Assembly: GCA_035545855.1 (NCBI GenBank)
Contig: DASZXK010000167.1
Coordinates: forward strand, 1 to 26,193
Direction: 5' to 3'
Source: Polyangiaceae bacterium
GTDB taxonomy: Bacteria > Myxococcota_A > Polyangia > Polyangiales > Polyangiaceae
Length of the DNA: 26,193 bases
Shown here: one piece after another, positions 10,580-25,689 of the stretch
Position numbering within the stretch: the first letter of the stretch is position 1
How the letters are laid out: every line of letters begins with the position of its first letter
The notes under the pieces: model-generated
What the model saw: the letters and a program-made list of their open reading frames with translations, nothing else
What the model was told of the DNA's origin: nothing
Database searches by the model: none
Made by a program: the position numbers and the translations under genes

Positions 10580-11212
10580 TCAAGGGACGAGCGCCGAAAG
10601 GATCGGAGCGGGATCCTTTCCGAGCCCGTCGCTTCGCACCAGGACGCGCCCCTGGGCGTCCAGGAGGACGATCGCCGTCGAGTGGTAGAATTCGCCGTTG
10701 TCGAGCTTCCTGTAGCGGATGCCGAGCACGGCGGCGAGCTGTCGCGCGTCGTCTTCGGCGGCGCTCGCGAACGTCCATCGCGAAGGGTCGAGCGAGCGGC
10801 GCGCCATGAGCCGCGTGAGCACCTCGGGTGTGTCCCTCGCGGCGTCGAAGCTCACCATCAAGATCCTGAGGTTCTCGCGCTCGGGCTCCGGGACCAGGCG
10901 ATCGATCTTCTCCAGGTCGCTCGTGAGCATCGGGCACACGTTCGGGCAGCCCGCGTAGAACATGGAGATCAACACGGGGTGGCCACGGAACTCGTCGAGC
11001 GGCTGCCGTTTCCCGTGCTCGTCCGAGATCTGGATCTGGAGGTCGTAGACGGAGACGCCGTTCGCCGCGTCCTCCGCCGGAGGCCGTACCGGCGGCGTCG
11101 GGGCGGCGCTCGGGGACGGAGCTTCGGTCGCGGCGTCCGTCGAGGGGGCTCGTCCGCAGGCGACGAGGCCGGAGAGCAGGGCGGCGAGGGTAGCGGTACG
11201 GAACGGGTTCAC
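10580..11212 (-). CDS. SCO1/SenC-family thioredoxin-like copper chaperone, lipoprotein
   Basis: CxxxC motif FYAGCPNVCP with a downstream conserved His (YHSTAIV). Signal peptide plus lipobox LSGLVAC. The GTG start at 11212 overlaps the stop of the upstream gene (GTGA). Confidence 0.85.
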   Translation of the reverse strand: MNPFRTATLAALLSGLVACGRAPSTDAATEAPSPSAAPTPPVRPPAEDAANGVSVYDLQIQISDEHGKRQPLDEFRGHPVLISMFYAGCPNVCPMLTSDLEKIDRLVPEPERENLRILMVSFDAARDTPEVLTRLMARRSLDPSRWTFASAAEDDARQLAAVLGIRYRKLDNGEFYHSTAIVLLDAQGRVLVRSDGLGKDPAPILSALVP

Positions 11213-12000
11213 GGTTTCCTCTCGATCTCTTTCACGCACCGGAAACCGAGCCGGGACGTCGTGTAGCGGGCTTCGAGCGAACTCCGGAATGCGATGCGCA
11301 TGAACGCCGCGTAGTCGCTGGGGTTCTGGGCGTCGGCACCGGCGCCGCCGCAGAAGCGCGTCTGGTCGACGACCCCTTTCTCGCGGGAGTCCATCGTGAC
11401 CAGGCTCGCGCCGAAATCGTAGACCCACTCCCACACGAGGCCGTGGAGGTCCCGGATGCCCCAGAAGTTCGGCTTCGAACCGCCCACGTCGGCGAGCGGC
11501 CTGGCGGACGTCGGTTCGGCGTACCAGGCGAGCACGCGTTCGGTCCACGCCGGGTCATCGGCTCCCCGCGCGGACGAGTCACTCGCCGCGGCGGCGAGCT
11601 CCCACTGCCGTTCGGTGGGAAGCTCGGCCCCGCGCGCCTTGCAGTACGCCTTCGCCGAAAACCAGCTCACGTTCGTCACGGGAGCCGCCGGACGAACGGA
11701 CGCGCCGAGGCGTTCGGCGTCTTCCCAGTGCGCGAGGTAGCCGAAATCCGCGAAGAGAGGCTTCACCCGATCGCGCCGCCACTCGGGCCGCTCGTGCACG
11801 AACGCGAGGAAGGCCTGGTTCGTGACGGGCGTGACGTCCATGTAGAACGCGGGCACCTTCACCGTGCGCTCCGTCGGCGAGGCGGGGTAGAGCGGCTCGT
11901 ACACCCCGGGGCCGACGCGCGCCATGCCCCGCGGCGCCCGCTCGCCGAGCGCGGGAGCCGCGAGGAGCACGCCGAGGAGCGCGATCCGCCAGGGGATCAA
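11209..12000 (-). CDS. nirV: NirV-like protein of the formylglycine-generating-enzyme (FGE)-sulfatase family
   Basis: FGE/SUMF1-type motifs: [28 protein letters not shown], and [22 protein letters not shown]-terminal signal-like [15 protein letters not shown]. Lies immediately downstream of nirK, as in known nirK-nirV operons. The start is uncertain. A candidate TTG at 12000 overlaps the nirK stop (TTGA). Confidence 0.72.
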
Positions 12001-13505
12001 ATGCCTGCTCCGCTCGAGCCCGAAGCCCGGACGCGCGCGACCTCGGCGGGCGAGACCACACCGTGGTCGTTCCCCCACGAGTTCAGGACGTACGTGATGA
12101 CGTTCGCGATGTCGTCGTCGCCGAGGTGGCTCCATGGCGGCATCGTCGAGTTGAACGTCGCTCCGTTCACGCGGATCGGACCCGTGAAGCCGTTCAGGAC
12201 CGTCGAGATGATCTTCGTCTTCTCGTTCTTCACGAGGTAGTCCGAGCCTGCGAGCGGGGGGAACGTGTTCGGCATCCCGAGGCCGGTCGCCTGGTGGCAG
12301 GTGATGCACGTCGTCGCGAACACGGATTTGCCGGCCGCGATCTGCTGCTCCTTGGTGAGAGGCCCCGAGGTGGGCTGCGTCGCGGCGAGGATCTGCGCCG
12401 GAGCCGCGGACTTTTCTGCCACGTAGGCCGAGTCCGCCTCCTTGCCCGAATAGACCACCGCGTCTTCGGGCCCGGAGACCTTGAGCGTTCCGACGGCGCC
12501 CTTGTTGAACGCGCGGAAGAGGGAATGGTCGACGATCGCGTACGAGCCGGGAACCTGGAGCTTGAACTCGGCCATCGTCGTGCCCCCGGCGGGCACCATC
12601 GTCGTCTGGACGTTCTCCTGGACCTTCGAGCCGCCCTCCGGATAGATGCGGTCGAAGATCTCCCCGATCACGTGGAAGCTCGACGTGAGGTTCGGTCCAC
12701 CGACGCCGAAGTAGATCCGCACGGTGTCGCCGACGTAGGCCTTCAGCGCCTTGTCGCCGAGGAGCGAGCCCTCGGCTCCGTTGAAGACGACGTACGTGGG
12801 TCGTTCGTCGATGCCCTTCTGCATGTCGAACGCTTGAAGACCCTTCTCGTGGTACTTCCCCGTGGTGTAGACGTCGCCCTGCATGACGTAGAACTCGCGG
12901 TCCACCGGGGGGAGGCCCTCCGGCGGCTCGACGAGGATCATCCCGTACATTCCGTTCGCCACGTGCATCGGCACCGGCGCCGTCGCGCAGTGGTAGACGA
13001 ACAGGCCCGCGTTCAGCGCGCGGAACGTGAACTTCGATTCGTGTCCCGGCGCCGTGAAGCTCGACGCCGCGCCTCCGCCGGGGCCGGTCACGGCGTGGAG
13101 GTCGATGTTGTGCGGCATCTTGCTCGAGGCGTCGTTCTGGAGGTGGAACTCGACGACGTCCCCCTGGCGCACGCGGATGAAGCTTCCGGGCACCGTGCCT
13201 CCGAACGTCCAGAAGTCGTACTGGACGCCGTCCGCCACCGGCAACGTGACCTCCTTCACGGCGAGCTTCACCACGACGTGCGCGGGCTTCGTGCGGTTCG
13301 TCGCAGGCGGCACGTTCGGAGGCGAGGTGAGCTGCGCGAGGATCGGTTCACCCGTCGGAAGACTCGTGACGTCGAGCTCCGGCTTCGCGGGCGTCGTCGC
13401 CGACGGTTTCGGGCGTACGGTATGTTCGGAAGGAGTCTCGCTGCATCCGAGCGACAGCAGAGCGAGGGAGGAGAGCGCGGTTCCAAATCGTCCGACGTGT
13501 TTCAT
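11997..13505 (-). CDS. nirK: Copper-containing nitrite reductase NirK with a fused C-terminal mono-haem cytochrome c domain
   Basis: Cupredoxin motifs PHNIDLHAV and [18 protein letters not shown] supply the type 1/type 2 Cu ligands (H, C, H, M). The C-terminal domain carries the CITCH haem-binding motif. N-terminal signal peptide with Cys (LLSLGC), so it may be a lipoprotein like Neisseria AniA. ATG at 13505 (a GTG lies immediately upstream). Confidence 0.9.
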
Positions 13506-13757
13506 CACGGGCGAGCAAAAGCACCCGCCGTGCCACGGGCGATTTTCCTGCGTCTCGCGATGGAGCCGATGTGCGCGGGGCGCAGATCCTTCGCGCTCGC
13601 GCAGCGGGGTCGTGCGCAGAACGTGGTCACGTGCCCTACGGGGCGCACCCGGTGCGCCTGCCCCGTCGATCCTCTTCGAACGCCGAGAGCAGATTCTGCG
13701 CGTTCGCACGAAATGAGATCCGTCGCCCGTCGAGCCGCGAGGACCGGATCCGGAGCT

Positions 13758-14147
13758 CTACTCGCCCGTGGGACGCGGTGGGTCCGGCGGAGCGCCCGCG
13801 TCGCCGCTCGCCGGCTCGGTTCCGGGCCGCTTCAGCCCGGCGCCGAACGAAAGGGGTTCGTGCTCCGGCTTCGGTGGCGATGGCTTCGCGGACGACCCCG
13901 AAGGCTTCGGCGCGGATCGCGGAATGAGCCCGGCCTTCCACGCCGAGCCGGTCGACGGAGGACCCTGCCGGAAGAGCGCCGCGTCCCCCGGACGCGTTCC
14001 ACGGCTACCCGGCGGATCGAGCTGACTCGACCCGTAGCACTGCGTGCCGTACTTCGGCCCCGACTGACAGTACGTGTCCACGCAGGCGGCGACGAGCGCG
14101 GACGAGACGCAGAGAGACAGGACGCCCGTCAGCGAAGCGGCTCTCAC
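13758..14147 (-). CDS. Small secreted Cys-rich lipoprotein with a Pro-rich C-terminus, hypothetical
   Basis: GTG at 14147 gives a signal peptide with lipobox (RAASLTGVLSLCVSSALVAAC) followed by VDTYCQSGPKYGTQCYGSS. Third-codon GC read by hand is about 85%. It shares orientation with nirK and is directly upstream of it. The full track ORF (to 14336) is rejected because it would abut the divergent gene's start. Confidence 0.45.
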   Translation of the reverse strand: MRAASLTGVLSLCVSSALVAACVDTYCQSGPKYGTQCYGSSQLDPPGSRGTRPGDAALFRQGPPSTGSAWKAGLIPRSAPKPSGSSAKPSPPKPEHEPLSFGAGLKRPGTEPASGDAGAPPDPPRPTGE

Positions 14148-14338
14148 GGACGATCGGATAGCACGCTCCGCGAGCGATCCGGGCTGGCCGGGGCGTCTCT
14201 CGCCGGGGAACTGCACCGAAGAGGGCCCCGCGACTCGCCCCCAGGGAGAAACCGGAGCCGGCGCCACACGCCGCGTGCCTGCCCGGCCCCTGGTCCGGTG
14301 ACTATCGGCTGGTCCACGCCCAGGAGAAATACCCAAAA

Positions 14339-15400
14339 ATGCTCGCTTTTCGCCCCCGTGCCGCCGTCTTCGCCGTTCTCGGCTCCGCGCTTCTGGCCGT
14401 CGCCTGCGGAGACGACGCTTCCACCGCCGCCGCTCACCGGCCCGGCGGGTCGCTCGACGGAACGGGAAGTGGCGCTTCCGTGACGCCCGGCGCTGGCGGC
14501 TCGGTGAGCCCGGGTGCGGGCGGAGCGATCTCCACCGGCGCGGGCGGCACGACGTCCGGGAGCGGGGGTGAGACGTCCGCCGGCACGGGCGGCTGGCAGG
14601 AGCTCACGTTCACGAGCGACACGTTCACGGTAGCCGCCGGGGACGAGGTGTACCGCGCGCAGAACTTCGCGAACCCCATCGGTCACGACGTCGACATCAT
14701 CGAGAGCGAGTCGACGATGGCGAAGGGCTCGCACCACATGTTCGCGTTCCACGGCGCTAGCTACAATCAGGACGGCGCCATCGGGGACTCCACGGGCATC
14801 GAGTTCGCTCCGTACATCCACACCGCGCAGACGCCGGAGCAGCTCACTCGTTACCCCGCCGGCATCGGCCGCTACCTCCCGGGGGCAGACGGCATCCGGC
14901 TCCAGGTCCACTACATCAACACGTCGGATCAGGACATCCAGGCGTCCGTCTCGCTCCGCATCCGCTACGTGAACACCGATCAGGTGACGTTCCATGCCGC
15001 GGAGATCTTCCTGAACGACGTCGGCGTCCGCGTCCCGCCGGGCACGAGCACCGCGACGACGACCGTGAGCATGCCTTACGACGTGAAGCTCCTCGGCGCG
15101 GGGAGCCACATGCACCGGCGCGCCGTCGGCTTCGACTCCACGACGAACGACGGCCGCGAGATCTACACGACGACGGACTGGAACGAGCCCGTCGCGGCCG
15201 CGTTCGACCCGACGATCGACATCGCCCAGGGCGGCAGCATCACGTGGTCCTGCACGTACGACAACCAGACTGGCCAGACGCTCACCTTCGGCGAGTCCGC
15301 GGCCACGAACGAGATGTGCATCTTCAGCGGCGTCTACTACCCCGCGCCGAACGGCGCCGGCATCACGCGGCAGTGCCTCGGCCGCGGGTCGTGCTTCTGA
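14339..15400 (+). CDS. Secreted lipoprotein with a Gly/Ser/Thr-rich linker and a putative PHM/DBH-like type II copper monooxygenase domain
   Basis: Signal peptide plus lipobox LLAVACG. Low-complexity linker (GAGGSVSPGAGGAISTGAGGTTSGSGG). Then SHHMFAFHG (HHM, residues 132-134), H191, GSHMHRR (HxH, 257/259) and NEMCIF (M326). The spacing and local context match the CuH (HH..H) and CuM (HxH..M) sites of peptidylglycine alpha-hydroxylating monooxygenase. Confidence 0.55.
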   Translation: MLAFRPRAAVFAVLGSALLAVACGDDASTAAAHRPGGSLDGTGSGASVTPGAGGSVSPGAGGAISTGAGGTTSGSGGETSAGTGGWQELTFTSDTFTVAAGDEVYRAQNFANPIGHDVDIIESESTMAKGSHHMFAFHGASYNQDGAIGDSTGIEFAPYIHTAQTPEQLTRYPAGIGRYLPGADGIRLQVHYINTSDQDIQASVSLRIRYVNTDQVTFHAAEIFLNDVGVRVPPGTSTATTTVSMPYDVKLLGAGSHMHRRAVGFDSTTNDGREIYTTTDWNEPVAAAFDPTIDIAQGGSITWSCTYDNQTGQTLTFGESAATNEMCIFSGVYYPAPNGAGITRQCLGRGSCF

Positions 15401-15457: not shown

Positions 15458-16006
15458 CTACGGCCCGCTTCCGCCCGCGCCCTTGGAAACCCCCTGAGCT
15501 TCCGAGATCAGCGTCTGGATCGTCTCGCACTCGGGGACCTTGCCCGTCTGGACGTTGCCGCACGCCATCTTCGGCACGTCCCGAAGGCAGTTCGCGAGCG
15601 CCTTTTTCTCGGCGTCGTCGAGCTCGGCCTTCGGGGCCTTGTCCTTGAACGTGCGCGTGTTCTTGTAGCAGGCCTCCTGCGTCGGGATCTGCATGGAGAG
15701 CATCATCTTCTGCTGCGGGGGAAGAGCGGAGAGCATCTTCTCCCGGCACGTCGCGACACGCTTGCAGAGCGCCTCGGCGTAGTCGGCCACCCACTTCGGG
15801 ACCTCGATCTTCGCGGGCTCCGCGGAGGGCGTGGGTGTCGGCGTGGGCGCGGGCGTCGGCATGGGAGCCGCCGTCGGGACGAGCGCGGAGAGCGCGCCTT
15901 CGACGGAACTCGCGGTCGGTTTCTTCTCGTCCTTCGAGTCGCATCCCACGCTTGCGGCGAGTGCGACGAGGGTCACGATCAGCTGCCGGGTCGTGTTCGA
16001 AGCCAT
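15458..16006 (-). CDS. Hypothetical lipoprotein with a Pro/Thr linker and a 6-Cys C-terminal domain
   Basis: ATG at 16006 preceded by GGGAGG. Signal peptide plus lipobox (LVALAASVGC). PTPAPTPTPTPS linker. Cys-rich lysine-rich domain. No recognisable family. Confidence 0.6.
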   Translation of the reverse strand: MASNTTRQLIVTLVALAASVGCDSKDEKKPTASSVEGALSALVPTAAPMPTPAPTPTPTPSAEPAKIEVPKWVADYAEALCKRVATCREKMLSALPPQQKMMLSMQIPTQEACYKNTRTFKDKAPKAELDDAEKKALANCLRDVPKMACGNVQTGKVPECETIQTLISEAQGVSKGAGGSGP

Positions 16007-16195
16007 GCTGCCTCCCTGCAAAATCGCCGCTGAGCGGCGTGGGCGGCTCATACTACGGACGGCCGTCCACCGGACCCACCGATCGACGGGCCAGCCCGAT
16101 CGATCCCGGTCCTTCACGGCGGGCTCGATGAGCTCGACGGGCGGGTTGGTCAGGAAGCGGAGGAACGCCTACCCGGCCCCCCGACTCTGAGCTAG

Positions 16196-16339: not shown

Positions 16340-18121
16340 ATGACCGACCGCACGTTGCCTCTCCGCGGAGCCGAAAACCCCACGAGCCGGAAGCTCGGCA
16401 CGAACCCCGGATCCTTCGCGAACCGCGCCGACGTCGGCGGACCGCTCTCCTACTCGTCGCCGGACACGCCCGGGATGCCCGCGCCGAGCGAGAAGACGGC
16501 GTGGGACTTTCTGCCGGACGGCTGGGTGAAGCTCCCGGGCGAGGACCGGGCGACCGCGCCCGCCGGCTTCGTCCCGGTGACGCAGCTCGAGCACGCGCGG
16601 CTCGGCGTCGTCACTCCGGAGATGAAGCGTGTCGCCGAGCGAGAGCCGCACCTCACGGCGGAGCAGATCCGGCGCGAGGTCGCGAGCGGGCGCATGATCA
16701 TTCCGGCGAATCGCGTTCACCTTCGTCATTCGCTCGACCCGATGGGCATTGGTCGCGCCACGAAGACGAAGATCAACGCCAACATGGGCGCGTCTCCCGT
16801 CTCGAGCGACACGGAATCCGAAGTGGAGAAGCTCCGCTGGGCCGAGCGCTGGGGCTCGGACACGGTGATGGACCTTTCCACGGGGGGCGACATCGACGCC
16901 TGTCGCGAGGCCATCGTCCGGAACTCCCGCGTGCCGATCGGCACCGTGCCCATCTACTCGATGATCCTCGGCCGGAAGATCGAGGACCTGACGGAAGAGG
17001 TGATCCTCGAGGGGATTCGCCATCAGGCGGAGCAAGGCGTGGACTACTTCACCGTGCACGCCGGGGTCCTCCGCGCGCACCTCCCGTTCGTGAAGGACCG
17101 TCTCATCGGCATCGTGAGCCGCGGCGGATCCCTCCTCGCGAAGTGGATGCTCGTGCACGGGAAGGAGAACCCGATGTACGCGCGCTTCGAGGACATCTGC
17201 GACATCATGCGACAGTACGACGTCTCCTTCTCGCTCGGGGACGGCCTCCGTCCGGGCGGGCTCGGGGACGCCTCCGACGTCGCGCAGCTCTCCGAGCTCG
17301 AGACGCTCGGCGAGCTCACGGAGCGCGCCTGGCGCCGCGGGTGCCAGGTGATGGTGGAAGGGCCGGGGCACGTGCCGTTCGATCAGATCGAGTACAACAT
17401 GAAGCTCCAGCGCCGCGTGTGTCACGGCGCGCCGTTCTACGTCCTCGGGCCGCTCGTGACGGACGTGTTCCCCGGGTACGACCACATCACTTCTTGCATC
17501 GGCGCGACCGCCGCGGCGTATCACGGCGCGAGCCTCCTCTGCTACGTGACGCCGAAGGAGCACGTCGGCCTCCCGAAGAAGGACGACGTGAAGCAGGGCG
17601 CCGTCGCGTACAAGATCGCGGCGCACGCGGCGGACGTCGCGCTCGGCATCCCCGGTTCCCGCGACTGGGACGACGAGCTCACGCAGGCCCGCGCGGCCCT
17701 CAACTGGGAGAAGCACTTCGAGCTCGCGTTCGACGGCGAGTACGCGAGGGCGCTCCACGACGAGGACCTCGACGTGGACACGGACTTCTGCGGCATGTGC
17801 GGCCACGACTGGTGCTCGGTCCGCATCTCGAAGGAGATCGCGGAGTTCGGGAGCGGCAAGGCGGCCGGGTTCTCGCGCGCGGAGGTCACGAAGAGCGCCG
17901 CGCTCACGCCGGAGCAGCAGGCGGTCCTCGAGAAGCGCGGGGTGCTCTCGCCGGAAGAGATCCACCGCCTTGCGTCCAAGACGCGGAAGGCCGTCGGTGC
18001 CGACAAGGGCGCGAAGGCCGCGTGTCACAGCGACTTCGCGGAGCCGGAGGACGCCCAGCGCGTCCAGGAGAAGCGGCTCGTTCGCCTCCGGATCGCGCCG
18101 CCGGCACCGGACGCGGAGTGA
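16340..18121 (+). CDS. thiC: Phosphomethylpyrimidine synthase
   Basis: 593 aa with conserved ThiC blocks throughout and the C-terminal radical-SAM-type cluster motif CGMCGHDWCS. AAGGAG Shine-Dalgarno 7 nt upstream. Preceded by the TPP riboswitch. Confidence 0.96.
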   Translation: MTDRTLPLRGAENPTSRKLGTNPGSFANRADVGGPLSYSSPDTPGMPAPSEKTAWDFLPDGWVKLPGEDRATAPAGFVPVTQLEHARLGVVTPEMKRVAEREPHLTAEQIRREVASGRMIIPANRVHLRHSLDPMGIGRATKTKINANMGASPVSSDTESEVEKLRWAERWGSDTVMDLSTGGDIDACREAIVRNSRVPIGTVPIYSMILGRKIEDLTEEVILEGIRHQAEQGVDYFTVHAGVLRAHLPFVKDRLIGIVSRGGSLLAKWMLVHGKENPMYARFEDICDIMRQYDVSFSLGDGLRPGGLGDASDVAQLSELETLGELTERAWRRGCQVMVEGPGHVPFDQIEYNMKLQRRVCHGAPFYVLGPLVTDVFPGYDHITSCIGATAAAYHGASLLCYVTPKEHVGLPKKDDVKQGAVAYKIAAHAADVALGIPGSRDWDDELTQARAALNWEKHFELAFDGEYARALHDEDLDVDTDFCGMCGHDWCSVRISKEIAEFGSGKAAGFSRAEVTKSAALTPEQQAVLEKRGVLSPEEIHRLASKTRKAVGADKGAKAACHSDFAEPEDAQRVQEKRLVRLRIAPPAPDAE

Positions 18122-23085: not shown

Positions 23086-25689
23086 TCAAACACGGGCGCG
23101 CCGTCTGCTGCGTAGCAGCAGGGCCGCGACGAGCCCCCACGCCGCGGTGGCCGACGAAGTCTTCGACTGTACTGTGCGGCACCCGCACCCACCGGGATCG
23201 ACCGGGAGATGGCTCTGATCGCCCGGCAGCCCGCTAGAATCTGGTGCCGCGCTCGCGTCGTGGCGGTGTCCAGCATCGGGTCGTGAAGGGAGCCCGCCCG
23301 CTTCGCGCGGCATGGATGAATCGAGCCTACTCACGGAGGAGTCGCGGCTCGCCACGACGGCGTCGCGGACTCCGGAGTCCGTTGGCTTCTTGCCGGCGTC
23401 TCCGTCGGCACTCGCGTCTTCCGGGACGGCGCTGTCCGCGATTGCCGCATCGTGCGTGCCGGTCGAGACTGCTCCATCACGGCAACAGTCATCCCCCGTG
23501 TCGCCTGGCCGAGCGTCGCCGGGACTCGCATCGACAGTCGACTCGAGTCCGCCATCAGGAGCGAGGCCGAACAAGCGCAGACCGATCCGTGGTGTCGGAC
23601 CCGCCACGGATGAGAATGCGAACAGCGCTTCCCCTTGAATTCGGCTCGCTCCAGATGTCCACGGGAAAAAGGGCGATGAATCGAAGGTCGCGGGGGGGCC
23701 GAATTCTTCGGCGCTTTCGCTCGCGATGGTCACGCGGCCGCGAGCCGCGCGTCCGTCCCCACCCACGACGAACAACCGTCGACCGTCCGCGATGACGATG
23801 GAGCTGGAGGGCAAGGAATCGCTGAAAACGGGCGTTCCGAAAGTCCAGGATCCCGCTGTCTTCGTCAGAGTCGCGAGTCCGGTGCTGCAGGACAGCACGA
23901 AGCCGGCCCCGACCGGGGCGATTCCGCTGGCCGAAGAGCTGCACGGGGAGCCCAGCGCCTCGGCCGAAGCCCCGCCGGATTCCAGGACGTAGAGCGCACC
24001 GTTGTCGCTGAATGCTTCAGCGGAGCCGTTTTCCGAGAAGGCCGTGATCTGATATGGCGTTCCCGGAATCCCGCGCTCCGGTGCCGCGCCGCCATCCGAA
24101 GAAAGGTCAGTGCGTGCGAGGAAGCCGCCGGAGAAGCTCTTGCATCCATCGCCGCCCTCCCAGTACTCGTGCAGGCCGCCCAAAGTCCCGATCTGGTGTG
24201 CGCCGATGCCATCGAACGGCCCTGCGACGAGCAATGGTCGTGCATCGAGCAAACTCCCATTCGCGGCCATGCGAAGCGCGACGACGGCATCCTTCAGCAG
24301 ACCCCGTTCGATCCAGGTGATCCAGTAGGTCGATCCATCGAACGCGACCTGCGGCTCGACCTGGTCCATGAACGGTTCAGCCGTCCGGCGGGGGAGAACG
24401 AGGGGCGGCGAATCCAGGAAGACGCCCGACGGGGTGACGCGTGTTGCAACGATTTCCGAGCGGCGCCCGCGCAGGCTTTCCCACGCAACGAGGTAGGTCG
24501 AGCCGTCTGTCGCGACGACGGGGGCTGTCTGGCTATCCTCCGCCGTGCGACCGCCGATTTCGACCTCCCGGATGGGAGTTCCGTCCTTCGCGATCCGCAC
24601 CGCGATCGAGTCGTGTGGGCCACGCCAGGTCGCGAGATGGGTGAATCCGTCGAACGCGATCATCGATTCCGTGCCCGTCGCCCAGGGCGACGACGAAACC
24701 GGCGTGACCCCGGAAACCGCACCGTTCGCGATCCGCACGGCAACGACGGTGGAGTCATCACGCGCGAGCACGACGAAGGTTGATCCGTCCGAGTCAGCGG
24801 CGCCGACTCGTTGATCGGGCGCGAGCGTCAGCATCGGCGAGATCGGGGTCCCGTCTTTTGGATCTAGGAACACCGCGCGCACGGCGGTGACCGGTCCGGC
24901 CTTGCACCACACGGATCCATCTGGGTCGGGCGTCGGCGCGGTTGCCGTCCAGGCGTATAGGCATTCGGCGTTCGTGCACGCGAGCGCGGCGGGTTCATAG
25001 AACGCCGTCTCGCCCAGCGGAATGTCCTGCTCGATCTCCGCGCCGTCGGTCTCGCGGACACCCCGAAGTCGCAACTCCTGGCTCGAACAGGCGGTGTCCG
25101 CGCAGGCACGCGCCGCATACCAGTAGTTGCCGCCGCTGAACGCACGACCGTCGATGCGTAGAGTAAAGAGCCCGATGGCCGTGCTTCCGAGGTACGTTCC
25201 GAACGAGTCGAAACGGTTGACGGAACCGTCCCACAAGGCGAATCCGTCAGCCCCGGCAACCGGTAGAGAACCCTGGACGATGGCAACCGGCGTCGTGCTA
25301 CCGGATTGATCGAGCCAAAAGGGCTTCGTCGACATCGCAAGGAACCGGGAACCAATGAAGGCGACTCCGCTTCCACCTCCCGGAATGCCTACGACGTCCA
25401 GGTTCGTGCCGTTTGCATCGATTCGATGGAGGCGGATCCCGGAATCGGTCTGGAGTTCCACGAGCGTCACGCCGCCGCCGGCTGCGATTCCGATCGGCCA
25501 GCTACGGGGTGCGGTGGGCACGGATGCGCCCGGCGTACGCCACTCCTTTGACACGACCGGCACCTCCAAGAGGGGCGCTCTCGTGGTTCCTGTTTCCACG
25601 GACGATCGCGGCAAGGGATCGGCGCAGCCCGAGAGTATCAGGGCGCCGGTCAGTGCCCAGATCCCTTGCAATCGAACCTCCTCGGGCAT
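23086..25689 (-). CDS. Large secreted lipoprotein with internal ~50-aa repeats and a C-terminal MYXO-CTERM-type sorting tail
   Basis: N-terminal signal plus lipobox (WALTGALILSGC). Repeats carry a DGSTYLVAW ... VAxRIxxDGT consensus. The C-terminus is GGCGCRTVQ ... AAWGLVAALLLRSRRRARV (GCGC, hydrophobic stretch, then a poly-Arg tail). 867 aa. Confidence 0.8.
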   Translation of the reverse strand: MPEEVRLQGIWALTGALILSGCADPLPRSSVETGTTRAPLLEVPVVSKEWRTPGASVPTAPRSWPIGIAAGGGVTLVELQTDSGIRLHRIDANGTNLDVVGIPGGGSGVAFIGSRFLAMSTKPFWLDQSGSTTPVAIVQGSLPVAGADGFALWDGSVNRFDSFGTYLGSTAIGLFTLRIDGRAFSGGNYWYAARACADTACSSQELRLRGVRETDGAEIEQDIPLGETAFYEPAALACTNAECLYAWTATAPTPDPDGSVWCKAGPVTAVRAVFLDPKDGTPISPMLTLAPDQRVGAADSDGSTFVVLARDDSTVVAVRIANGAVSGVTPVSSSPWATGTESMIAFDGFTHLATWRGPHDSIAVRIAKDGTPIREVEIGGRTAEDSQTAPVVATDGSTYLVAWESLRGRRSEIVATRVTPSGVFLDSPPLVLPRRTAEPFMDQVEPQVAFDGSTYWITWIERGLLKDAVVALRMAANGSLLDARPLLVAGPFDGIGAHQIGTLGGLHEYWEGGDGCKSFSGGFLARTDLSSDGGAAPERGIPGTPYQITAFSENGSAEAFSDNGALYVLESGGASAEALGSPCSSSASGIAPVGAGFVLSCSTGLATLTKTAGSWTFGTPVFSDSLPSSSIVIADGRRLFVVGGDGRAARGRVTIASESAEEFGPPATFDSSPFFPWTSGASRIQGEALFAFSSVAGPTPRIGLRLFGLAPDGGLESTVDASPGDARPGDTGDDCCRDGAVSTGTHDAAIADSAVPEDASADGDAGKKPTDSGVRDAVVASRDSSVSRLDSSMPREAGGLPSRPDAGHRHDASAAPDSSGLPGDQSHLPVDPGGCGCRTVQSKTSSATAAWGLVAALLLRSRRRARV

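Follow-up and report, generated by a model that had tools for sequence, protein, structure and literature searches.

A predicted lipoprotein family of the Polyangia with the copper-ligand register of peptidylglycine monooxygenase

When a bacterial protein shows the copper-ligand pattern of peptidylglycine alpha-hydroxylating monooxygenase (PHM), and its gene lies beside a copper nitrite reductase gene, which of the two facts tells us more about its function? The question is raised by a 353-residue predicted lipoprotein encoded at positions 14339 to 15400 (+ strand) of contig DASZXK010000167.1. This contig, complete at 26,193 bp and about 69% GC, comes from a Polyangiaceae metagenome-assembled genome (MAG); we refer to its whole length as the window. 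An initial annotation of the locus had described the product as a lipoprotein with PHM-like copper ligands, and had suggested that it belongs to a copper regulon together with the neighboring nitrite reductase genes. PHM, dopamine beta-hydroxylase (DBH) and tyramine beta-monooxygenase (TBM) are the textbook non-coupled two-copper monooxygenases. We assign the window protein, with a probability of roughly 0.7, to the same structural class; that is, we read the gene as encoding a membrane-tethered, extracytoplasmic, non-coupled two-copper monooxygenase. Our confidence in any specific substrate is much lower than our confidence in this class.

Fold and copper-ligand register

The ATG at 14339 is the earliest start in frame past an upstream in-frame stop, and a GGAG is found about 12-17 nt 5' of it. 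The GC content at third codon positions (GC3) is 0.92 for this open reading frame (ORF), which is usual for coding sequence in a contig of this composition, and the product is 100% identical to the NCBI entry 'hypothetical protein VHE30_23170, Polyangiaceae bacterium'. The gene and the parts of its product are listed here; the PHM equivalents are read from the alignment to the family hidden Markov model (HMM) described below.

14339 to 15400, + strand: complete gene for the 353-residue PHM/DBH-like lipoprotein, stop codon included (ORF listing, translation).
14339 to 14407, + strand: lipoprotein signal peptide, residues 1-23 (MLAFRPRAAVFAVLGSALLAVAC), with C23 as the predicted lipidated cysteine (read from the sequence).
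14408 to 14590, + strand: Gly/Ser/Thr/Ala-rich tether, residues 24-84; AlphaFold2 confidence (pLDDT) below 50 at residues 24-71, which are predicted to be disordered.
14591 to 14989, + strand: N-terminal beta-sandwich domain, residues 85-217, counterpart of the CuH (electron-transfer) domain of PHM.
14732 to 14740, + strand: H132-H133-M134, aligned to PHM H107-H108-M109 (two CuH ligands and the adjacent Met).
14909 to 14911, + strand: H191, aligned to PHM H172 (third CuH ligand), in an LQVHY motif identical to that of PHM.
14990 to 15397, + strand: C-terminal beta-sandwich domain, residues 218-353, counterpart of the CuM (O2-activating, substrate-facing) domain of PHM (PF03712, structure matches).
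15107 to 15115, + strand: H257-M258-H259, aligned to PHM H242-T243-H244 (two CuM ligands).
15251 to 15253, + strand: C305, aligned to PHM C293; predicted disulfide partner of C327, by comparison with PHM.
15314 to 15319, + strand: M326-C327, aligned to PHM M314 (the CuM thioether ligand) and C315.

The family profile and the AlphaFold2 model were both built from alignment A2, which contains 102 homologues with a mean column identity of 28%, and the register was obtained by aligning the window protein and a PHM fragment to the family HMM with hmmalign. All six proposed ligands of the window protein (H132, H133, H191, H257, H259 and M326) fall on the six copper ligands of PHM (H107, H108, H172, H242, H244 and M314), as their order had led the initial annotation to propose. 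The motifs on which that proposal was built, HHM at 132-134, H191, HMH at 257-259 and E325-M326-C327, with spacings of 58, 66 and 67 residues, are all where it had put them. Outside the ligands, Y105 aligns to Y79 of PHM and Q189 to Q170, and both residues are conserved.

The six ligands, together with C305 and C327, are invariant in all 102 homologues. Since the mean identity of the alignment is only 28%, this invariance argues for selection on both metal sites. The two cysteines are separated by 22 residues, the same distance as C293 and C315 of PHM, and M326-C327 is part of a family signature, TFGESAxTNEMC. The equivalent of M134 is Met in 91 of the 102 homologues. M258, between the two CuM histidines, is invariant (102 of 102) and specific to the family. 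Further invariant residues that are not ligands lie near the ligands: Q108, N112, S131, N194, W281, P284, N309, F317-G318-E319-S320-A321 and N324. These residues, along with M258, are candidates for a role in substrate binding or in communication between the two sites.

A second disulfide of PHM, C81-C126, corresponds to columns 107 and 151 of the window protein, each of which holds Cys in 95 of the 102 homologues. The window protein (A107 and S151) and its closest relatives, P0003 and P0004, lack both of these cysteines, and the same three proteins share a gained pair of C-terminal cysteines (C346 and C352 in the window protein). Such a pattern would be expected if the two cysteines do form a disulfide.

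Profile searches and structure prediction lead to the same enzymes. The Pfam model PF03712 (Cu2_monoox_C) matches the window protein with 27.7 bits, against a cut-off of 23 (E 2.2e-6), over residues 288-336 only; it matches 93 of the 102 family members at E up to 0.01. NCBIfam holds no model for the protein. Against the PDB, the family profile finds PHM at E 3.5e-5 (profile positions 98-335, chain residues 29-281) and human DBH at E 7.8e-4, covering both domains in each case. The family profile was required for these matches, because a single-sequence phmmer search of the PDB returned matches to the low-complexity linker only. The AlphaFold2 model has a block-mean pLDDT of at least 89 from about residue 81 to the C-terminus, with 258 residues at 90 or above. 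When it is compared with the PDB by Foldseek, the first 31 matches are all PHM or DBH, the best of them with E 2.5e-13 and a target-normalised TM score of about 0.70. Superposed on PHM, the predicted fold agrees with it over 262 residues at 3.1 A, and the six ligand residues fall in the ligand columns. Judging from this superposition and from the alignment register, the six residues would converge on two copper sites.

The initial annotation had proposed to search with the Pfam models of both PHM domains and to superpose a predicted structure on PHM. The second comparison agrees with it, the two-site geometry being read from superposition and register together, while the first does so in part: PF03712 matches and PF01082, the N-domain model, does not. 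It had also named two findings that would speak against a PHM-like protein, namely the lack of any significant profile match and a fold in which the ligand residues do not cluster. Both were looked into and neither was found, as the profile match is significant and the ligand residues superpose on the ligand columns of PHM. These comparisons support the view that the window protein carries a genuine PHM/DBH-type catalytic core.

The N-terminus of the protein contains R5 and R7, then an uncharged hydrophobic stretch, and then A-V-A-C23 (LLAVAC, followed by G). It presumably fits the PROSITE lipobox rule PS51257, which we applied by eye. C23 is kept in at least 90% of homologues, where it again follows a hydrophobic stretch (alignments A1 and A2). 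We thus predict that the protein is a bacterial lipoprotein. The tether that follows (residues 24-84) is hypervariable in both length and sequence across homologues. The lipobox and the Gly/Ser/Thr tether of the initial annotation are therefore retained, with predicted disorder reaching residue 71.

In many paralogues the tether carries a Cys-rich module, approximately GC(T/S)xAPxCGxCxxCxxxCxCxxxxxxxCxxxC, which is lacking in the window protein. We see it in P0003, P0004, P0012, P0017, P0018, P0030, P0048, P0097 and P0118 (columns ~105-145 of alignment A1). The Cys-rich N-terminal region of longer relatives gives weak matches to Dickkopf_N, Dumpy DPY and DUF7107.

Substrate pocket and comparison with known enzymes

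A conserved pair of metal sites need not imply a conserved substrate, and it is important to separate the two. In the alignment to the family HMM, R240, N316 and Y318 of PHM are replaced by G255, I328 and S330 in the window protein. Position 255 is Ala, Val, Gly or Ser across the family, and never Arg; at position 328, 99 of 102 members have Ile. Q272 of PHM corresponds to A287. In the 1OPM structure of PHM, Y318 and N316 help R240 to hold the C-terminal carboxylate and backbone of the glycine-extended substrate. R240 of PHM forms a salt bridge to the C-terminal carboxylate of the substrate (PMC12164859). Because these three anchors are replaced, the window protein is not an orthologue of PHM, and because the residues that anchor the carboxylate are absent, its substrate would not be a glycine-extended peptide bound in the manner of PHM.

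The accessory domains of the known enzymes are absent as well. Neither Pfam nor the AlphaFold2 model gives a DOMON domain in the window protein, and residues 24-84 form a low-complexity tether instead. Nor is there a PAL (lyase) domain by the same two approaches, or a recurrent partner gene among the 79 family loci described below. A DBH-type protein was also considered, and we rule it out on the absence of the DOMON domain. The window protein probably works as PHM and DBH do at the metal sites, on a different substrate.

It is useful to set the protein beside each of the known systems in turn. The closest is the catalytic core of PHM, PHMcc (PDB 1PHM, 1OPM, 1SDW; EC 1.14.17.3). The two share the six copper ligands in register, the HHM, LQVHY and EMC contexts, the equivalents of Y79 and Q170, and the cysteine pair of the C293-C315 disulfide; the pair of the C81-C126 disulfide is kept by the family but not by the window protein. 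Both are minimal cores of similar size, with no extra catalytic domains. However, the window protein is only 16-18% identical to PHMcc, and differs from it at R240, N316, Y318 and Q272, as described above. Unlike PHM, it has no PAL domain, no transmembrane segment and no cytosolic tail, and would instead be anchored as a lipoprotein through its disordered tether, with a reductant that is unlikely to be ascorbate. The invariant Met between the CuM histidines and the failure of PF01082 to match are further differences from PHM.

DBH, TBM and MOXD1-2 (PDB 4ZEL) differ from the window protein in possessing DOMON and dimerisation domains, and the structural match to DBH is weaker than that to PHM. 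The structural match to PNGase F (PDB 1PGS), a double jelly-roll protein of the PHM/PNGase F structural superfamily, is much weaker. PNGase F is a metal-independent amidase, whereas the Polyangia family keeps the complete two-copper ligand set.

The Polyangia family and the nirK neighborhood

A database search with the window protein yields 187 clusters at 90% identity. Source names, where given, are all 'hypothetical protein', and every organism named among the clusters is a Polyangiaceae bacterium; P0003 is a paralogue, 66% identical, from the same MAG as the window protein. We also scanned one genome per species, for 185,579 species, for the signature FGESAxxN[EV]M. The scan gave 95 confirmed stretches, of which 79 loci were kept, and the signature is confined to Polyangia in this set. 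The loci include one from a cultured organism, Minicystis rosea DSM 24000 (L041). An exhaustive HMM search of 1.84 billion cluster representatives retrieves, from metagenomes, 582 proteins at E <= 1e-30, each representing a cluster at 50% identity, and 2,560 at E <= 1e-10.

The family occurs in many copies per genome, up to 10 or more. For example, the signature scan finds 10, 8, 5 and 5 loci in single assemblies, and PHM-like genes stand three in a row in L001 (331-4517), with other tandem arrays in L002, L016, L046 and elsewhere. This multiplicity, sometimes in tandem, suggests that the substrates, extracellular or periplasmic, vary, and that the family does not serve one housekeeping function.

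We searched for partner genes by all-against-all clustering of 1,738 ORFs from the 79 loci, and by Pfam annotation of 98 immediate neighbors and five giant neighbors. No conserved partner gene was found in the 79 loci, and tandem paralogy is the sole feature clearly tied to the family: the commonest immediate neighbors are themselves PF03712 proteins (7 of 98). Ser/Thr kinases, sigma-54/FHA activators, nitronate monooxygenase genes, a TPR giant protein and M16 peptidases recur, each in a few loci only. In L013 (5651-9790) and L015 (6313-9654) the PHM-like gene directly follows, on the same strand, a gene for a large M16 (insulinase-type) peptidase; 16 and 146 bp separate the two genes. The arrangement occurs in two related MAGs and could be a hint at peptide substrates.

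We found no literature on bacterial PHM/DBH-like proteins; this is weak evidence of absence, as most subscription journals lay outside the search. It fits the remark in the initial annotation that such proteins are poorly characterised.

In the window itself, the PHM-like gene is divergent from a group of genes on the opposite strand, which we list as context together with the intervening gap.

13506 to 14338, no strand: gap of 833 bp between the likely NirK start and the PHM-like gene.
10580 to 13505, - strand: nirK(-cytochrome c) / FGE-sulfatase (NirV-like) / SCO1-SenC module (Pfam, NCBIfam).
10580 to 11548, - strand: SCO1/SenC (Pfam, NCBIfam).
11209 to 12309, - strand: FGE-sulfatase (NirV-like) gene (Pfam, NCBIfam).
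11997 to 13505 or 13709, - strand: NirK with a C-terminal cytochrome c domain (TIGR02376, 352 bits against a cut-off of 296).

The likely NirK start is the ATG at 13505 on the minus strand (MKHVGRFG), and the N-terminus so defined resembles a lipoprotein signal. A copper chaperone (SCO1/SenC) and a copper nitrite reductase (NirK-cytochrome c) are thus the divergent neighbors, just as the initial annotation had identified them. Its further proposal, that the PHM-like gene belongs to a copper regulon with nirK, does not survive comparison with other loci. We find nirK, nirV and SCO1 at 0 of the 79 family loci (tblastn of the window proteins, +-10 kb, E <= 1e-5). Conversely, the PHM-like gene occurs at 0 of 80 metagenomic loci that encode relatives of the NirK-cytochrome c protein (53-84% identity), in 44 of which the sequence extends 2 kb or more upstream of nirK. 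SCO1 lies downstream of nirK in 59 of these 80 loci. Since nirK-(nirV)-sco1 is conserved in related loci without the PHM-like gene, we place that gene outside the module. The closest homologues with a recorded gene context, P0004 (71% identity) and P0007 (58% identity), have neighborhoods unrelated to that of the window: TetR, FMN-reductase and tautomerase genes for the former, and YbeY, transaldolase and ApbE genes for the latter. Thus, that the PHM-like gene stands next to nirK-nirV-sco1 in this contig is most probably a coincidence. In this single contig it lies close to nirK, as do the NirK accessory genes nirV and sco1/senC, and its product would share a cell compartment with theirs, but SCO1 recurs beside nirK and the PHM-like gene does not.

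Some further observations concern these neighborhoods. A clearly NirV-like FGE-sulfatase gene sits between nirK and SCO1 in six of the NirK-relative loci (numbered within L080-L159); the others have a gap of about 900 bp there, which may hold a more divergent gene. In L019 (JAHBVX010000004.1, 10001-20976), a family member of 40% identity is found about 6 kb from the Hsp33 and GlyS genes, with no nirK. Hsp33 and GlyS also flank the PHM-like gene of the window, on that same side. This points to a right flank that is in part syntenic and to a nirK module that was placed independently.

The initial annotation had also assumed a divergent promoter region shared by the two transcription units. The gap between them provides no support for this: it is 833 bp long, it contains no match to the sigma-70 consensus (a pattern that myxobacterial promoters may not fit), and a TTGA-N6-TCAA box of the FNR/NnrR type, with at most one mismatch, is found nowhere in the window (myxobacterial regulators, again, may not fit it). 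Repeats in the gap are short, imperfect two-copy matches. No match to the sigma-54 consensus was found within the gap. The sequence TGGCACGGCGGGTGCT, at 13520-13535 on the minus strand, has two mismatches to the sigma-54 -24/-12 consensus. It lies about 15 nt before the ATG at which nirK probably begins, too near the start codon to convince, and shares positions with a predicted terminator-like hairpin. About 33 sigma-54 matches with at most three mismatches are expected by chance in the window.

The gap may also encode a small lipoprotein (13758-14145, minus strand), beginning M/V-RAASLTGVLSLCVSSALVAAC, continuing with CVDTYCQSGPKYGTQCY and ending in a Pro/Gly/Ser-rich tail. Its GC3 is 0.82, under the genome norm of about 0.9. 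The full frame (13758-14336) has no Pfam match, the 129-residue candidate has no NCBIfam match, and no homologue occurs in the 79 loci.

Elsewhere in the window, a thiamine pyrophosphate (TPP) riboswitch (RF00059, 16202-16303, + strand, 70.5 bits, E 3e-12) stands directly upstream of thiC (16340-18121), the expected arrangement. Downstream of the PHM-like gene and convergent with it, 15458-16117 (minus strand) encodes a probable lipoprotein of 219 residues of the LA_2478/LA_2722/LA_4182 family (NF047485, 53.7 bits against a cut-off of 38; no Pfam match). An ORF of 867 residues at 23086-25689 (minus strand) has no match in Pfam or NCBIfam.

Proposed function and its alternatives

As a two-copper monooxygenase, the protein would be exported by Sec and lipidated at C23, so that its two-domain beta-sandwich core is held outside the cytoplasm by a flexible tether some 60 residues long. 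By homology, H132, H133 and H191 would hold the electron-transfer copper, CuH, which accepts electrons. H257, H259 and M326 would hold CuM, where O2 is bound and a hydrogen atom is abstracted from a substrate in the cleft between the domains. The outcome would be a C-H hydroxylated product.

Several observations count against this proposal and must be set beside the evidence for it. PF01082 does not match the window protein even at E <= 10, and it matches only 2 of its 102 relatives; the PHM-like N-domain is picked up only by structure and by the family profile searched against the PDB. Position -3 of the lipobox is Ala, not Leu. An electron donor (DOMON, cytochrome b561 or cupredoxin) is neither fused to the protein nor conserved nearby (79 loci; 98 neighbors), and the family loci contain no conserved neighbor that points to a substrate. 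No bacterium is known to supply ascorbate to its periplasm, and ascorbate seems an unlikely reductant here.

How, then, might the same observations be explained otherwise? The absence of an identifiable reductant partner or substrate-binding motif would be natural if the protein were a non-catalytic copper-binding lipoprotein that reuses the PHM scaffold for buffering, sensing or resistance, and such a role would suit an extracytoplasmic protein with invariant His/Met-rich sites, the extra invariant M258 and the near-invariant M134. Buffering, however, does not call for what has been kept: the exact, asymmetric pairing of a His3 with a His2Met site, the disulfide next to the Met ligand and the two-domain cleft are catalytic needs, many invariant residues that are not ligands cluster in motifs round the ligands, and no cop, cus or cue genes are conserved nearby in the family loci. 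We consider this explanation improbable. To much the same degree we doubt that the protein is a peptide-modifying enzyme that acts on secreted myxobacterial peptides through another mode of recognition, whether by alpha-hydroxylation and amidation or by cross-linking in the manner of BURP proteins. PHM is, after all, the nearest structure, an M16 peptidase gene lies directly upstream on the same strand in L013 and L015, and the copper BURP cyclase acts on peptides through a similar His2Met site (PMC12164859). But the whole family lacks counterparts of R240, N316 and Y318, no PAL/lyase partner, precursor-peptide gene or conserved biosynthetic context was found in the family loci, and the M16 neighbor is limited to two closely related genomes.

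Depending on how much weight is given to the window contig itself, one might also regard the protein as a partner of NirK, co-regulated with nirK-nirV-sco1 and engaged either in copper handling and delivery for NirK or in the chemistry and detoxification of nitrogen oxides. The gene is next to, and divergent from, the nirK-cytochrome c, FGE/NirV-like and SCO1 genes; NirK, also lipoprotein-like, would share a compartment with it; and the CuM site of PHM has been crystallised with nitrite bound (PDB 3mib, 3mlk). The comparative evidence points the other way: neither set of loci reproduces the association (0 of 79 and 0 of 80), P0004 and P0007 lie in unrelated contexts, up to ten or more paralogues in a genome are at odds with a dedicated NirK accessory, and the 833-bp gap is without an FNR/NnrR-type box. 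We hold a partnership with NirK to be very improbable.

A more speculative extension of the monooxygenase assignment, which we hold to be rather unlikely as it stands, is that the family forms a new functional class: PHM-fold tethered monooxygenases that do not use ascorbate, are fed by a c-type cytochrome, a cupredoxin or a small redox shuttle, and oxidise extracellular substrates. If so, the substrates would be compounds such as polymers from prey or plants, lipids or secreted metabolites, and the paralogues would represent substrate specialisation like that of the lytic polysaccharide monooxygenases (LPMOs). The cytochrome c domain of the neighboring NirK could then be an opportunistic source of electrons in this organism.

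It remains to say what is new in these results. Fold and metal sites belong to an enzyme family that is well known, and many members already carry a Pfam match in the C-domain. What is new is a coherent, multi-copy lipoprotein family restricted to the Polyangia, with the full ligand set, a remodelled pocket and no DOMON or PAL partner. The adjacency to nirK should not enter annotation as a functional link. Recognition of the family would allow hundreds of proteins now labelled 'hypothetical' (582 clusters at E <= 1e-30) to be named. To our knowledge, all PHM, DBH and TBM enzymes that have been studied mechanistically are eukaryotic, glycosylated and disulfide-rich, and hence difficult to produce; at about 270 residues, the compact bacterial family could supply tractable models for the passage of electrons across the space that separates CuH from CuM. 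Because one member belongs to the cultured and fully sequenced Minicystis rosea DSM 24000, experiments are feasible, and the family could reveal copper-dependent C-H oxidation chemistry in the envelope or secretome of myxobacteria.

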